This document shows positions 854 through 44,513 of a stretch of 64,000 bases of DNA, one piece after another. The notes under the pieces were generated by a model. It searched no databases and had not been told where the DNA came from. It saw only the letters and a program-made list of their open reading frames with translations. The position numbers were made by a program, and so were the translations under genes. The DNA comes from Eubacteriales bacterium (GTDB lineage: Bacteria; Bacillota; Clostridia; Christensenellales; Aristaeellaceae), in assembly GCA_031549325.1 (NCBI GenBank), contig JAVBQA010000018.1:18621-82620 (forward strand). The letters are read 5' to 3'. Position 1 is the stretch's first letter, and every line of letters begins with the position of its first letter.

Positions 854-1929
854 GCGTTCTCCGTGCCGTCGAACACCACGGCCACCTTGCCGCACTGGCC
901 GCCCGCCATCAGCGCGTAGGCCTTGGGGGCGTCTTCGAGCTTGAAGCGGTGGGTGATCAGGTCCTCCGGGTGCAGACCCCAGCGCACGATGCGCTCGACC
1001 AGGTCCTCCATGCGCCACAGGCTGGTGACCCAGCTGCCGTAGATGGTCTTCTGGCCGTGGATGATGTCGGGCGACGGGTTGAAGTTCACCGTGCCGCCTT
1101 CGCCCACAAACGCGATCTTGCCCCAGGCGCGGGTGGCGCGGATGGCGAGCTGGCGCCCCGCGTCGTTGGCGCTGCAGTCGATCGCCTTCTCGACGCCGTT
1201 GCCGCCGGTCGCCTTCAGAATCTCATCGAGCGTCTGGTCGCCCGGCTTGAACACGTGATCCACCAGCCCAAGCTTCCGGGCCAGCTCAATGCGCTCTTCC
1301 AGCACCTCGACGCCGATCAGCTTGTTCGCGCCCATGGCCTTGGCCAGCATCAGGGTGGCCAGGCCCACCGGGCCCAGGCCCACCACCAGCACCGCGTCGT
1401 TGCCCGAAACGCTGATTTTCTCCAGCGCCTCGTACACCGTGCCAAAGCCGCAGGCCACCTGCGCGCCGTCGCAATAGGTCAGCTCGTCCGGCAGCGCCAC
1501 CAGGTCTTTCTCGTCGCACAGCACGTACTCGGCCATGCCGCCGTCGCGCTGCCAGCCGTAGGCCGCGCGGTGCTCGGAAGAGCAGCTGATCTGGTAGCCC
1601 ATGCGGCAGTCGTGGCACACGCCGCAGCCGCTGATGTGGTAAACGATCACGCGGTCGCCTTTCTTAAACCGCTTCAGGCCCGGGCCCTCTTCAACGACCT
1701 GGCCGCAGGGCTCATGGCCGGCCACCATGCCGGGGATGTAGCCCTCAGCGCCCTTGCCGGTGTGCTCTCTGTAGATACAGCGGATGTCGCTGCCGCAGAT
1801 GGTCGAGGCCATCGTCTTGACGAGTACCTGGCCGTGACCGGGCTTGGGGATGTCAAACTGCTTCATCTCGACGGTCGAGTTGCCCGGGAGGATCGCCCCG
1901 AGCATCTTCCCACAGCATGCTTCACACAT
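850..1929 (-). CDS. zinc-dependent alcohol/polyol dehydrogenase (MDR family)
   Basis: ORF 850..1974. Motifs GHEPCGQVVEEG (catalytic Zn) and CGVCHDCRMGYQISC (structural Zn), plus a GLGPVGL Rossmann motif. Start placed at ATG 1929 (MCEACC..) because GGAGGGG lies 7 nt upstream and the predicted promoter -10 (1970-1975) lies downstream of the first ATG at 1974. Confidence 0.85.
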   Translation of the reverse strand: MCEACCGKMLGAILPGNSTVEMKQFDIPKPGHGQVLVKTMASTICGSDIRCIYREHTGKGAEGYIPGMVAGHEPCGQVVEEGPGLKRFKKGDRVIVYHISGCGVCHDCRMGYQISCSSEHRAAYGWQRDGGMAEYVLCDEKDLVALPDELTYCDGAQVACGFGTVYEALEKISVSGNDAVLVVGLGPVGLATLMLAKAMGANKLIGVEVLEERIELARKLGLVDHVFKPGDQTLDEILKATGGNGVEKAIDCSANDAGRQLAIRATRAWGKIAFVGEGGTVNFNPSPDIIHGQKTIYGSWVTSLWRMEDLVERIVRWGLHPEDLITHRFKLEDAPKAYALMAGGQCGKVAVVFDGTENA

Positions 1930-1969
1930 GATCGTACCCCTCCGTCTATCATCAATAAGATTTGTGTCT

Positions 1970-1999
1970 ATCATATCGCAACATAGCGTGACGTGTCAA
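1970..1999 (-). promoter_or_regulatory. sigma-A type promoter for the ADH-AKR operon
   Basis: Minus strand reads TTGACA (1999-1994), 18-nt spacer, TATGAT (1975-1970). Confidence 0.5.
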
Positions 2000-2015
2000 T
2001 AGGATTTACAACAAA

Positions 2016-2031
2016 AACGAAACGTTTCGTT
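2016..2031. promoter_or_regulatory. perfect 16-bp palindrome; probable LacI-family operator
   Basis: AACGAAACGTTTCGTT is a perfect inverted repeat with the central CG typical of LacI/CcpA-type operators. It lies between the divergent ADH and LacI promoters. Confidence 0.6.
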
Positions 2032-2051
2032 GTGATAATCTCCTGATATTG

Positions 2052-2080
2052 TTGACACAGTGTTGGTGTCATGCTATAGT
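2052..2080 (+). promoter_or_regulatory. sigma-A type promoter for the LacI-family regulator
   Basis: TTGACA (2052-2057), 17-nt spacer, TATAGT (2075-2080). Confidence 0.55.
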
Positions 2081-2124
2081 GTTAACATGTGGGAAACGAA
2101 ACATTTTGCGATGGGGAGACGCGC

Positions 2125-3123
2125 GTGGCCAAGACATACAAGGACATACAGCGGATGACCGGGCTCTCGCTGAGCACGATCAGCAAATACTTCAACGGGG
2201 GCTCCATGCGGCCGGAGAACCGCGTCTCGATTGAGCGCGCCATCACGAAGCTGGACTACCGCATGAATCCCTTCGCCTCGGGGCTGAAGAGCCGCCGCTC
2301 GCGCAAAGTGGGCATTCTGATCCCCGAACTGACCAGCACCCACCACAGCCTGATCACCTCCGAGGTGTGCCAGCACCTGCGCGAGGCGGGCTATGACAGC
2401 GTGGTGTGCGACTGCCATCTGGACCAGGCCATCGAGCGCGACGCGCTTTTGTTTCTGCTGGACAAGATGGTCGACGGCGTGATCACCATCCCGCTGAACC
2501 AGCGCGGCGACCACCTGAAGGAGGCCGCGCGGCGCGAGGTGCCGGTGGTGCTGGTGGACCGGCTGGCGTCCGAGTTCCGCACCGATGCGGTGATCGTGGA
2601 CAATGTGAGCGCGGGCGGCATGGCCGCCGAGGCGCTGCTGGCCCACGGGCACCGGAGGATCGGGCTGATCACGGGGCTGCCGGACATCTACACCATGCGC
2701 GCGCGCGCCCAGGGGTTCCAGAGCGCGCTGATCCAATCGGGCGTCGCGCTGGACCCGGCGCTCACCCGGGAGATCGAGTTCACCGTGGACGGCGGCTACC
2801 AGGCCGCCATGGCGCTGCTCACGATGCGGGAGCCTCCCAGCGCGCTGTTCTGCGCCAACTACGACCTGATGCTGGGCATGATCATGGCGCTGAACGAGCT
2901 GGGGCTTCGGATCTACGAGGACATTTCCGTGGTGGGCATCGACGACCTGACGCTGTCCCGCGTCATCAAGCCCAGACTCACCATGATCATGCAGCCCATG
3001 CAGGAGATCGCCGCCCAGGCGTCCCGCCTGATGATGGAGCGGCTGGAGGGGCCGGTGCCCGGCATCCGCCTGGTGGAGCTGCCCACCGAGCTGATTCAGG
3101 GCGCGTCGATAAAGCGCGTGTGA
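2125..3123 (+). CDS. LacI family transcriptional regulator
   Basis: ORF 2089..3123. N-terminal HTH YKDIQRMTGLSLSTISKYFNG followed by a periplasmic-binding-protein-like sugar-binding fold. GTG 2125 is preferred (GGGGAG 5-6 nt upstream); GTG 2089 would be almost leaderless. Confidence 0.85.
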   Translation: MAKTYKDIQRMTGLSLSTISKYFNGGSMRPENRVSIERAITKLDYRMNPFASGLKSRRSRKVGILIPELTSTHHSLITSEVCQHLREAGYDSVVCDCHLDQAIERDALLFLLDKMVDGVITIPLNQRGDHLKEAARREVPVVLVDRLASEFRTDAVIVDNVSAGGMAAEALLAHGHRRIGLITGLPDIYTMRARAQGFQSALIQSGVALDPALTREIEFTVDGGYQAAMALLTMREPPSALFCANYDLMLGMIMALNELGLRIYEDISVVGIDDLTLSRVIKPRLTMIMQPMQEIAAQASRLMMERLEGPVPGIRLVELPTELIQGASIKRV

Positions 3124-3227
3124 GTCCAATGATCACAGAATGCAGAAGTTCCTGTGAACATTCCCCCTAAACCCTTTACATCGCGTGGGTTTCACGCTAT
3201 AGTGATGAGGGAAATGGGGGGTTCATT

Positions 3228-3683
3228 GTGTACACGGAACAAGATTACACGAAGGCGCGCGCGCTCATGAACAGGCGGCTGCTGTTTTCGTCGGTGTTTC
3301 TGGCGCTGGCCATCGCGTCCCTGGTCTTGGGGCTGCTCATTCGCAACAAAATCCTGATGGTCGCGGGCTGCACGCTTTTTGGCGGGCTGTTTTACTTTGC
3401 GCTGGACATGCTGGCCATGCCCTGCGTGCGCTATGGGCGGTTCCTGCGCGACATCCATGAGGGGCGCTCCCGCAAGATCCAGGCCGGTTTTGTCTCGGTT
3501 TCCGGGCAGCCGCGGCCGCAAAACGGTGTGGCTTTCTACGACGTGCTGGTGCGCGAGGACGGGGCCGACGCCGACCGGTTGCTGTACTACGACGCAAAAA
3601 AGCCGCTGCCCGCGCTGAAGCCCGGCCAACGCCTGGACATCGAATCTTTCGGCAACTACATCATCGCTTTGGGCGAGGCATAA
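3228..3683 (+). CDS. hypothetical membrane protein (two predicted TM helices)
   Basis: 151-aa ORF, GTG start after a G-rich RBS. Hydrophobic stretches LLFSSVFLALAIASLVLGLLI and LMVAGCTLFGGLFYFALDML. G/C-rich third codon positions, consistent with coding. Confidence 0.6.
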   Translation: MYTEQDYTKARALMNRRLLFSSVFLALAIASLVLGLLIRNKILMVAGCTLFGGLFYFALDMLAMPCVRYGRFLRDIHEGRSRKIQAGFVSVSGQPRPQNGVAFYDVLVREDGADADRLLYYDAKKPLPALKPGQRLDIESFGNYIIALGEA

Positions 3684-5438: not shown

Positions 5439-5560
5439 CAGGCTGTCAAAAAAGCATCCGGCATGCAGGGAGGGAATGTAGAGCTTGCAGGACAGCCAAG
5501 CCCAAGGGGGATTTCGGGGGCCGAAGCCCCGGTCAAAAGACGTAGTATTTTGACAGCCTG
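5439..5560 (-). mobile_element. 122-bp internally deleted, inverted copy of the TIR-bounded repeat (copy A)
   Basis: Starts CAGGCTGTCAAAA and ends TTTTGACAGCCTG. Its left ~95 bp matches the reverse complement of the right part of copy B, and its last ~30 bp matches the reverse complement of copy B's left end. The central hairpin block is missing. Confidence 0.8.
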
Positions 5561-5607
5561 AGCGCCCCTGGCGATTGAGCCAGGGGCGCTGCCGCGTGGA
5601 TGGATGC

Positions 5608-17982: not shown

Positions 17983-18021
17983 GCGCGGGGGCCCGAACCT
18001 TTAAGGTTCGGGCCCCCGCTT
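17983..18021. repeat. left copy of the duplicated 39-nt terminator hairpin flanking repeat copy B
   Basis: GCGCGGGGGCCCGAACCTTTAAGGTTCGGGCCCCCGCTT has a 17-bp perfect stem. It is 38/39 identical to 18247-18285. Confidence 0.9.
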
Positions 18022-18246
18022 CAGGCTGTCAAAATACTTTGTCTTTTGACAGCGAAATGCAAGTCTTGTGAATCAGGGATTCACGGGCAGACTTGCATCC
18101 AGTGCGGAAATCGCCTGCGGGCGCGCAGGTCGCCCTTCGGCGGCTTTGATCCGGGGACTTCGGCCCCCGAAAACCCCCTTGGGCTTGGCTGCTTCTGGAA
18201 GCTCAACATTCCCTCCCTGCATGCCAGATACTTTTTTGACAGCCTG
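18022..18246 (+). mobile_element. 225-bp TIR-bounded hairpin-rich non-coding element (MITE-like), copy B
   Basis: 13-bp perfect terminal inverted repeats CAGGCTGTCAAAA / TTTTGACAGCCTG. The internal sequence is a chain of stem-loops. Same length and largely the same sequence as 44257-44481. Confidence 0.85.
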
Positions 18247-18285
18247 GCGCGGGGGCCCGAACCTTTACGGTTCGGGCCCCCGCTT
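18247..18285. repeat. right copy of the duplicated 39-nt terminator hairpin flanking repeat copy B
   Basis: GCGCGGGGGCCCGAACCTTTACGGTTCGGGCCCCCGCTT has one loop-proximal mismatch relative to 17983-18021. Confidence 0.9.
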
Positions 18286-18455
18286 GATGTAAATGGCGCC
18301 GGAGGGTTCTTTCGTGTCGCGAAAGGAATCTTCGGCTTACCGGCGCCTATATCAACCGTCCGGCCCCAGGGGGGCCAACGTCGGGACGGCATGGGCTGGC
18401 CAGGTGGGACTCCGCCCGCCTGGCCATGTGGGGAAAGCGCAGCCGGCGCAGGGGG

Positions 18456-19436
18456 TTAGCTTTGCGTCATGGTGCAGCCGCAGCGCGGGCACAGCGAGGA
18501 ATTGCAGGCGCCGCAGGTGGTGCCACAATTCGAGCAGGTGCTGGTGCTGGTGTAGACGGTGCCCATCACCTGGTTGATGTTGGCCATGCAGCTGGCGCCG
18601 CTGGCGTTGACGGTGTTGCAGTTGATGGTCGTCGGGCCGGGTTTCTGCGGGAACAGAGGCAGGCTGAAGAACTCGTCGCATACATTTTCAGCAAACTCTT
18701 CGCAGGGCGGGATCTGGCAGAAGCCATAGGAGGGAATCATCACTTCCACTTCGGCCAGGATCTTCAGCACGACGGTGACGCAGATGGTGATTTCGAACTT
18801 GCAATTCCCTATGTAATTGCCGGTGACGCAGATCGCGCTGACCAGGCTCTCCAGCGTGAAGGGCACGATGGACTCCTCGGGGATGGCGAGCAGCACGTCC
18901 TTCTGAACCGAGACCACGGCGGTACCCATCCACTCCTGGCAGCGGTCGTCCGTGAACAGCACGTCGATCGGGATGTCCACCAGGCCCTTGATGCGGGCGA
19001 ACTGGGGACGGTCGCACATGCGGTCGATGGACAGGTTCCGGATGACGCCCTTGGTGTTGGCCGAACGGCAGCTCTCAAAGTTCCATTGGCCGATGGGGGT
19101 GGGCAGCGGGCAGGGGGAGTTCTCGGCATTATGTACGGCTTGCTCGTGGGTCAGCACCCCGCCACAGTTGGGGCACTCGCAGTTGCAGGTGTTGGCCACG
19201 CAGGTGCAGGTGCAGCCTCGGCCCGAGCCAATGTTCCGGCAGTTGGGATCGGGCAGCACCGGCACGATGTTGGCCACGGTGACGACCACGTCATCCAGCT
19301 GCTCCTGCTGCAGGCAGGCGTCGTACACGTTCTTGACCTGCACGCAGATCCTTTCGTTCAGTCCGCCGCAGATGTTGCCGGTCACCGTCCCGGGACACAG
19401 CTCAGCGTTGGCGTTCTTGTAGCTATAAAACGACAT
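18456..19436 (-). CDS. cysteine-rich hypothetical protein (possible spore coat/exosporium-type protein)
   Basis: ORF 18456..19559. ATG 19436 (MSFYSYK) lies 7 nt after GGAGG. 326 aa with more than 40 Cys, including clusters GCTCTCVANTCNCECPNCGG and TCSNCGTTCGACNSSLCPRCGC. No signal peptide or TM segment. Confidence 0.7.
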   Translation of the reverse strand: MSFYSYKNANAELCPGTVTGNICGGLNERICVQVKNVYDACLQQEQLDDVVVTVANIVPVLPDPNCRNIGSGRGCTCTCVANTCNCECPNCGGVLTHEQAVHNAENSPCPLPTPIGQWNFESCRSANTKGVIRNLSIDRMCDRPQFARIKGLVDIPIDVLFTDDRCQEWMGTAVVSVQKDVLLAIPEESIVPFTLESLVSAICVTGNYIGNCKFEITICVTVVLKILAEVEVMIPSYGFCQIPPCEEFAENVCDEFFSLPLFPQKPGPTTINCNTVNASGASCMANINQVMGTVYTSTSTCSNCGTTCGACNSSLCPRCGCTMTQS

Positions 19437-19626
19437 GCGCATACCTCCTTGATGTCTCCTGGGGCGAATTCGCCCACACTGCATGGTATGCCCGAGTGCC
19501 CAAAGCGTGAAAGAACCGGAGACGACGATTCCGGGCCCGCTGCATGAAGCTGGAAACAAAACGGGCGGCCCATGCGTCTAAGGGATTGTCCCCGCGAACA
19601 GGCGGGCGAAAAGGAGGAAAAACCGC

Positions 19627-44224: not shown

Positions 44225-44256
44225 AGACGAGGGATGGCGTTAGCCATCCCTCGTCT
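44225..44256. repeat. left copy of the duplicated 32-nt terminator segment flanking repeat copy C
   Basis: AGACGAGGGATGGCGTTAGCCATCCCTCGTCT is 30/32 identical to 44482-44513. Confidence 0.85.
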
Positions 44257-44481
44257 CAGGCTGTCAAAAGACTGCGTCTTTTGACAGCGAAATGCAAGTC
44301 TTGTGAATCGTGGATTCACGGGCAGACTTGCATGCATCAAGGATCGCAGCCTGCGGGCGCGCAGGTCGCCCTTCGGCGGCTTTGATCCGGGGGCTTCGGC
44401 CCCCGAAAACCCCCTTGGGCTCGGCTATTCTGCAGGCTCTACGTTTTTTCCCTGTATGAAACAGACTTTTTTGACAGACTG
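44257..44481 (+). mobile_element. 225-bp TIR-bounded hairpin-rich non-coding element (MITE-like), copy C
   Basis: CAGGCTGTCAAAA ... TTTTGACAGACTG (12/13 TIR). Same length and hairpin organisation as 18022-18246. Confidence 0.85.
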
Positions 44482-44513
44482 AGACAGGGGATGGCGTTAG
44501 CCATCCCTCGTCT
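44482..44513. repeat. right copy of the duplicated 32-nt terminator segment flanking repeat copy C
   Basis: AGACAGGGGATGGCGTTAGCCATCCCTCGTCT. The outer CAAC (44221-44224) and GTTG (44514-44517) of the original 40-nt palindrome are each present only once. Confidence 0.85.

Follow-up and report, generated by a model that had tools for sequence, protein, structure and literature searches.

A 64-kb stretch of DNA (the window, meaning the whole of the DNA analysed; 64.6% G+C, Bacillota/Eubacteriales-type host) contains three copies of a short non-coding element of the MITE (miniature inverted-repeat transposable element) type, and each of the two full-length copies is enclosed by direct repeats of a complete stem-loop. 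All three copies sit between convergent open reading frames (ORFs). The convergent pairs are LytR_cpsA_psr and NlpC/P60, CbiC and a cysteine-rich ORF, and an aldo-keto reductase with a 4Fe-4S domain and an MGH1-like hydrolase; CbiC and the cysteine-rich ORF are the neighbours of copy 1, at 18 kb. The element copies and their flanking stem-loops are as follows, in window coordinates.

5439–5560, minus strand: MITE copy 3, 122 bp, internally deleted, both 13-bp repeats perfect, no flanking duplication
5561–5590, no strand: single stem-loop next to copy 3 on its terminal-hairpin side, with no second occurrence in the window
17983–18021, no strand: left copy of the 39-nt target duplication, stem arms 17985–18001 and 18003–18019
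18022–18246, plus strand: MITE copy 1, 225 bp, non-coding, left repeat 18022–18034, right repeat 18234–18246
18247–18285, no strand: right copy of the 39-nt target duplication, 38/39 identity to the left copy, one loop difference
44225–44256, no strand: left copy of the 32-nt target duplication, stem-loop AGACGAGGGATGGC-GTTA-GCCATCCCTCGTCT, unlike the one at 18 kb
44257–44481, plus strand: MITE copy 2, 225 bp, 86% identity to copy 1, right repeat with one mismatch (CAGTCTG)
44482–44513, no strand: right copy of the 32-nt target duplication, 30/32 identity to the left copy, loop orientation kept

Copy 1 was delimited by reading of the sequence and with a repeat finder. Its terminal inverted repeats are perfect over 13 bp, the left one being CAGGCTGTCAAAA and the right one TTTTGACAGCCTG. 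The left repeat and an inverted subterminal copy of it form a terminal hairpin (18025–18037 / 18041–18053), and the internal hairpins include that at 18057–18066 / 18089–18098. Identity among the three window copies is 86–91% across the aligned parts, and the 13-mer occurs nine times in the window at two mismatches or fewer (1.3 expected). The two full copies are separated by 1-nt indels and share no conserved reading frame, so the element is non-coding; ORFs that cross it are not conserved between copies. The single-stranded DNA fold of the 18-kb region is far more stable than those of shuffled sequences (z = −9.6), as expected from stacked hairpins. Rfam gave no match at gathering thresholds across the window, and at E values up to 1 the matches in the element region were at chance level, all far under the gathering scores. 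A class C group II intron or other structured RNA was rejected because no Rfam family matched. The cysteine-rich convergent neighbour (18456–19559, minus strand, 367 codons, true start uncertain) has no Pfam match, and a separate hairpin (18397–18426) is located between this ORF and the right stem-loop copy.

The left 39-nt copy begins 9 nt past the stop codon of the cbiC-like gene, and each of the two 39-nt flanks has a 15–17-bp GC-rich stem. Because the reverse complement of a palindrome is the palindrome itself, the repeat finder also calls a 50-nt inverted repeat here, 92% complementary and made up of the hairpin plus the 13-mer. Taken at face value, this call would favour an arrangement in which the hairpins belong to the element as terminal inverted repeats of ~50 nt and the whole 303-bp unit moves. 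The asymmetric features are direct and not inverted, however. At 18 kb the non-complementary edges (GC ahead of the stem and TT behind it) are found again in direct register, and the loops show one mismatch in direct register versus two in inverted register; at 44 kb the asymmetric loop GTTA points the same way in the two flanks. It follows that the flanks are repeated in direct orientation. Since the stem-loop at 18 kb differs from that at 44 kb, they are target sequence and not part of the element, and this difference already refutes the 303-bp unit. Hairpin sequence and length are in fact different at every copy, and the probability left to such a unit is negligible. These two hairpin pairs are alone in the 64 kb in being exact direct repeats that are 20 nt or longer and lie 60–1500 bp apart. 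The 18-kb hairpin has no T-tract and a simple terminator scan makes no call there; for lack of the T-tract, the terminator at this site is putative.

The initial annotation of this stretch had described a 225-bp unit with perfect 13-bp repeats and without coding capacity, three window copies all lying between convergent genes, 39-nt flanks that are 38/39 identical and a different hairpin around the 44-kb copy. All of its coordinates and sequences for the unit were correct. The remaining points agree with the 1-nt indels and the unshared frame of the full copies, the ORF neighbours, the output of the repeat finder and the 32-nt stem-loop at 44 kb (30/32 identical copies), respectively. It had also stated that a terminator was duplicated whole on each side of the element. 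This is correct for the stem-loop, which is present twice with its 15–17-bp stem, the terminator being putative.

Related loci were collected outside the window with the left-end pattern CAGGCTGTCAAAA-N9-GTCTTTTGAC, in which the 13-mer folds on its inverted subterminal copy. A scan of GTDB genome contigs gave eight loci in two 'Bacillota bacterium' metagenome-assembled genomes, OH_CBB_177 and OH_PDB_32 (contig sets JAEYPB01 and JAEZTD01), and a relaxed pattern gave 56 loci in metagenome contigs, making 64 further loci with the same end in public genomes and metagenomes. Overlapping contigs were collapsed before insertions were counted as independent. A terminator-like stem-loop is found just outside the terminal-hairpin end at almost every locus, and the preference for hairpin targets is such that nearly every outward MITE flank is a stem-loop; A- and T-tracts are present at many of the metagenomic target sites. 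At 18 independent insertions, the two window copies included, the site's own stem-loop is directly repeated against both element ends with no spacer. The duplications are 23–39 nt in length with 0–2 mismatches and have a different sequence at each of the 18 sites, and their direct orientation is also evident from asymmetric loops (GTTA, CTCGAAATGAA and CATGGGT) and from edge bases. A further case (L001) shows a 13-nt match only, its two loop sequences differing, and at L013 and L038 the second stem-loop copy is decayed or truncated. Element length ranges from ~160 to 346 bp at these loci, the ends being the conserved part. The right-end consensus from 20 copies (reverse complement) is CAG-N-N-TGTC-R-AAAAA-G, and the right ends contain CAGCGTGTCAAAAAAG and similar sequences. 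A BLAST search of plasmids with the 303-bp unit gave no match, and a full-text literature search with the end sequence returned unrelated primers only.

Several of these loci have a more complex structure. In L002 (7231–7576), L006, L007 and L008, all from OH_CBB_177 and OH_PDB_32, the element is at least 340 bp long and contains extra internal modules relative to the 225-bp copies; L002 and L006 have the left flank in common and differ in internal content. In L004 (6626–7010), a stem-loop comes after a solitary terminal hairpin (CAGGCTGTCAAAATACTGCGTCTTTTGACAG), and then a different element of ~270 bp and the identical stem-loop again. The end of this ~270-bp element, AGGCATCGAAAAA-loop-TTTTTCGAAGC, has diverged, and the element appears to represent a second subfamily by which hairpins are likewise duplicated. 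Solitary hairpins of 31–35 nt, of the form CAGGCTGTCAAAA-loop-TTTTGACAG(C/G)CTG, occur in L005 (minus strand, 2028), L016 (6359–6392) and L032 (2884–2914) with no other recognisable element sequence beside them. These hairpins may represent remnants of deletion, minimal units or products of excision.

The element is short and non-coding, has terminal inverted repeats and is present in multiple dispersed copies, with a flanking duplication that differs from copy to copy. It is a MITE with stem-loop duplication, an assignment in which we have high confidence, and the flanking duplication is its transposition footprint; a duplication length of 23–39 nt is atypical for MITEs. The same arrangement could arise by duplication-free insertion between pre-existing tandem hairpins, or by later duplication of the hairpin through local recombination. 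L009 and L023, with different hairpins on the two sides of the element, are compatible with such an origin, and there is no empty site from a close strain for comparison. The nearest relative of the window CbiC among 5.8 billion proteins has 70% identity, which places a strain-level empty site out of reach. The metagenome contigs compared were picked by the element end and hence are all filled by construction. L053 (4855–5264) and L011 (3829–3847) are on contigs that are 98–99% identical and differ by a ~393-bp small-gene segment; this indel was rejected as an empty site because the gene is unrelated. Nevertheless, the repeat abuts both element ends without a spacer at 18 independent sites, its edges are dyad-symmetric, the 64 kb contains no other tandem hairpin duplication, and in relatives with 66–69% identical CbiC the cbiC gene is followed by one hairpin and no element. 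An origin from tandem hairpins or local recombination is thus considered very improbable.

The geometry of the duplication was analysed by reconstructing the 18 empty sites in silico and locating the stem in each. The distances from the duplication edge to the stem foot on the 5′ and 3′ sides are equal within 2 nt at 16 of the 18 sites. The duplicated segment is usually the GC-rich stem-loop, with the flanking A- and T-tracts remaining outside, and duplication length correlates with hairpin length with r = 0.59, outliers included. A variable, dyad-centred stagger of 23–39 bp does not fit easily with B-form DNA as the substrate of attack but would be natural on an extruded palindrome; we give a cruciform geometry of the target at the moment of attack an even chance. 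The 18 insertions, each with its own hairpin sequence, support the view of the initial annotation that the duplication is target-derived and, with 23–39 nt and dyad-symmetric edges in 16/18, that its length tracks the stem-loop. They also answer the check it had proposed on the flanks of other copies, as the duplicated hairpins in the window are not two local coincidences. The element had been proposed to be non-autonomous, which is supported: no copy carries a gene.

For comparison of the ends with known families, IS1272 was recovered from a staphylococcal plasmid via its neighbour fabI and its transposase then led to other IS1182-family members on plasmids, and an alignment of three IS1182-family transposases yielded 46 loci in viral contigs. 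In all, 33 IS1182-family ends were derived or identified by motif, from ISClbu1, a Butyrivibrio pCY186 copy, IS1272, Ralstonia and Agrobacterium copies and ~28 viral-contig copies. Near the tip, GGCTGT is present in 22/33, GGCTGTC in 13/33 and GTGTCAAAA in 6/33 of these ends (for example, GAGGCTGTCTCAAAATG, GGGGCTGTCCAAAAAG and AGAGGGTGTGTCAAAATG); further derived ends are GGGGCTGTCGCAYTAA, GGGGCTGTCTCAAAAC, GAGGTTGTGTCAAAACG, GAGGCTGGGACAAAAC and the proteobacterial GGCCGAGGCTGTGTGAAAAC. The motifs AGGCTGTC/GTGTCAAAA are common to the MITE ends and the IS1182-family ends. A terminal hairpin formed by the end repeat and an inverted subterminal copy, as in the MITE left end, is found in ISClbu1 (L077, 1090–2918), L094, L096, L097, L099 and L117, and no discussion of this architecture was found in the literature examined. 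On the basis of the shared end motifs and the terminal-hairpin architecture, the MITE was provisionally assigned to an IS1182-type transposase, and a DDE enzyme of this type is probably its driver. Other members of the family (ISClbu1, the Butyrivibrio pCY186 copy and the IMG/VR copies), with ends of the form (G/A)GGCTGTC...AAAA or G(G/T)TGTGTCAAAA and terminal hairpins as in the MITE, differ from it in that they encode a ~540-aa transposase with PF05598, PF01609 and PF13751, show no flanking duplication in the copies examined and in no case have the exact CAGGCTGTCAAAA end. ISfinder gives direct repeats of 0–60 bp for the IS1182 family.

Other mobile DNA also uses intergenic palindromes as structure-linked safe landing sites. 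IS1397 and ISKpn1 (IS3 family) insert in repetitive extragenic palindromic (REP) or other palindromic units, and group IIC introns insert after terminators. IS1397 differs from the MITE in that it enters the loop, splits the palindrome and makes a 3–4-bp duplication, and the group IIC intron differs in being a ribozyme that makes no duplication, the MITE having no Rfam match. IS200/IS605-type elements have neither terminal inverted repeats nor a flanking direct duplication; an IS200/IS605-derived or REP/RAYT (REP-associated tyrosine transposase) element was rejected because both features are present here. The ISAs1 family was considered for its 'CAGGG' ends and was rejected, the ends of the Escherichia coli H-repeat being CAGGGAAAGATCA.

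The closest systems in terms of outcome are IS1630 of Mycoplasma fermentans and ISMhom-1 of M. hominis, both of the IS30 family. For IS1630, target inverted repeats of variable sequence are reported to be duplicated over 16–26 bp, the individual values being 19–26 bp and, for strain M64, 16, 23, 25 and 26 bp (PMC3317919, PMC2853133); ISMhom-1 is described similarly (PMC7648426). Like the MITE, these elements insert in inverted repeats that are often terminator-like, with little sequence specificity, and the whole repeat is duplicated; the duplications are long and variable in both cases (16–26 bp for IS1630 and 23–39 nt for the MITE). IS1630 and ISMhom-1 are autonomous, are 1.2–1.4 kb in length with 27-bp ends and an IS30-type transposase, and reside in AT-rich mycoplasmas, whereas the MITE is a 225-bp non-coding element of a 64.6% G+C Bacillota with ends that are IS1182-like and unlike those of E. 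coli IS30.

In terms of target and ends, the MITE is closer to IS1272/TnSha1 of staphylococci (IS1182 family), which show no primary-sequence specificity and target hairpins, a large number of which are confirmed terminators (PMC4923244). The end motif of IS1272, GAGTCTGGGACATAAA, is related to the CAGGCTGTCAAAA of the MITE. However, on insertion of IS1272/TnSha1 a portion of the stem-loop is deleted and no duplication results (PMC4923244). Wan et al. proposed a cruciform model in which the stem-loop is lost when the 3′ feet are attacked and duplicated when the 5′ feet are (PMC5678879, Fig. 13). [quoted passage not shown] Both papers cite Siguier et al. for palindrome targeting in some IS1182 members (PMC4923244, PMC5678879). 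Neither IS1182 nor any duplication of hairpin length is mentioned in a 2024 review on MITEs of prokaryotes. The initial annotation had recognised the behaviour from no described family; IS1630, ISMhom-1 and the IS1272 cruciform model are precedents, and the mechanism that it outlined is essentially the published 'pathway b' (PMC5678879).

Taken jointly, we favour a hairpin-targeting MITE that duplicates its target stem-loop and has IS1182-like ends and an IS1182-like driver, with a probability of roughly 0.6. The target would be a stem-loop, GC-rich and terminator-like, in the short stretch that separates convergent genes, and the likely driver an IS1182-type transposase, presumably with DDE chemistry. 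At the moment of attack the palindrome may be in extruded form, as a cruciform or hairpin, in which case the two points attacked would be adjacent at the base of the four-way junction. Filling of the two single-stranded gaps would copy the whole stem-loop and leave the element between two direct copies of 23–39 nt.

A number of results weigh against this explanation. Neither the window nor the 547 kb of MITE-bearing loci nor the viral contigs yielded a transposase-bearing copy with MITE ends, and none of the 46 IS1182 loci from the viral contigs has a CAGGCTGTCAAAA end. The similarity between the MITE and IS1182 ends consists of a 7–9-nt motif and the architecture and does not amount to an alignment with one particular parent. 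Target duplication is absent from all 22 autonomous IS1182-family copies with flanks examined, although a few of them lie in or next to palindromes, so no IS1182-family transposase is seen here to duplicate a whole hairpin. About a third of the complete MITE copies have no second hairpin copy (window 5439–5560, L009, L023 and L039), and a close-strain empty site is lacking, as noted above. Two of the 18 sites deviate in geometry: at L057 the cuts on the two sides fall 12 bp within a 24-bp stem, and L011 is asymmetric with its far edge 7 nt inside. Owing to these internal cuts and this asymmetry, cutting at the cruciform base is only an approximate description.

The searches for a transposase-bearing parent were as follows. 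The left-end pattern had 0 matches in the viral contigs, and the left-end scans of genome and metagenome contigs gave short elements only. Searches with tblastn using the IS1272, IS30 and ISAs1 transposases and 49 IS1182-family ORFs against the 547 kb of MITE-bearing DNA gave nothing relevant. Relaxed end-repeat pairs 0.9–3.5 kb apart, sought at all loci, were chance pairs inside genes only (e.g. EF-G in L011). A search for a distant second hairpin copy matched L029 alone. In L029 (369–2256, minus strand) the MITE left end stands by the target hairpin and is followed by an IS110-like transposase fragment and a helix-turn-helix (HTH/XRE) membrane-protein gene, and the 3′ half of the target hairpin reappears 1.9 kb away. 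It was rejected as an autonomous parent and regarded as a nested or rearranged insertion, given the IS110-like fragment and the HTH gene. The lineage of L097, which has the closest IS1182 end (GGGGCTGTCCAAAAAG), was rejected as a source because the only named member among its homologues is Dysgonomonas (Bacteroidota), which is not the host lineage. L057 (299–421, minus strand) contains a fragment resembling the N-terminus of an ISAs1-type transposase (E = 9 × 10−7 versus E. coli YhhI), at a distance of 11 kb from the MITE. A few autonomous IS1182 copies (L102, L114 and L122) have palindromic remnants that span the junction. The L102 copy (1292–3362) is inside a palindrome, CTTGGATAA ... TTATCCAAAG, and divides it in two, which points to insertion close to the loop, a geometry unlike that of the MITE.

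The duplication-free autonomous IS1182 copies also bear on whether the same kind of MITE is instead moved by an IS30-family (IS1630-like) transposase. IS30-family elements are the only documented inverted-repeat duplicators, which counts against an IS1182-type driver and for this alternative, as do the variable inverted repeats of 16–26 bp duplicated by IS1630 and the like behaviour of ISMhom-1. However, the MITE ends show no similarity to the E. coli IS30 ends TGTAGATTCAAT... (the IS30-family ends used in the comparison), the AGGCTGTC/GTGTCAAAA motifs and the terminal-hairpin architecture are common to the MITE and many IS1182 ends, and the window and the MITE-bearing loci contain no InsI-like (IS30) ORF. 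An IS30-family driver is accordingly judged unlikely.

The missing transposase partner in the loci searched would also be explained if no DDE transposase were involved and the element were moved by a structure-specific enzyme (an HUH/Y1 single-strand transposase, a recombinase of folded single strands or a junction-resolving nuclease) or by replication template-switching. In the template-switching form, the switch would take place between the terminal hairpin of the element and the target hairpin, copying the element and duplicating the hairpin. The conserved terminal hairpin, the very stable single-strand fold (z = −9.6) and the solitary terminal hairpins at L005, L016 and L032 fit such a route. 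Terminal inverted repeats with a direct duplication are, however, the hallmark of staggered strand transfer by a DDE enzyme, both features are missing from IS200/IS605-type elements, and the end motif matches a DDE family; movement without a DDE transposase appears improbable. We attach an equally small probability to an unrecognised structure-specific mechanism, with no known IS1182 or IS30 transposase, in which the terminal hairpin engages the extruded target hairpin; an enzyme that resolves junctions or is specific for single strands, or template switching during replication, would be candidates. If true, it would constitute a new class of hairpin-to-hairpin mobile DNA and would account for the lack of a transposase partner in more than 0.5 Mb of element-bearing DNA.

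Duplication of a whole inverted repeat is rare but already known from IS1630, and the family link is plausible, so that no new field is opened by this MITE. What appears to be new is that a non-autonomous element duplicates hairpins and that its ends point towards IS1182 and not IS30, together with the breadth of the family in uncultured Bacillota and the clear dyad symmetry. The 18 dyad-symmetric, stem-loop-sized duplications form a clean natural data set which indicates that a transposase can select a target for its DNA structure, an extruded palindrome, and not for its sequence, and the MITE sites show the 'duplication' outcome that was predicted but unobserved in the published IS1272 model. 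MITE finders that expect duplications of 2–15 bp would miss such elements. For the host, terminator hairpins between convergent genes are safe harbours, and each insertion makes tandem terminators. The first hairpin copy loses its T-tract, from which it follows that the element probably joins the 3′ untranslated regions of both neighbouring genes.

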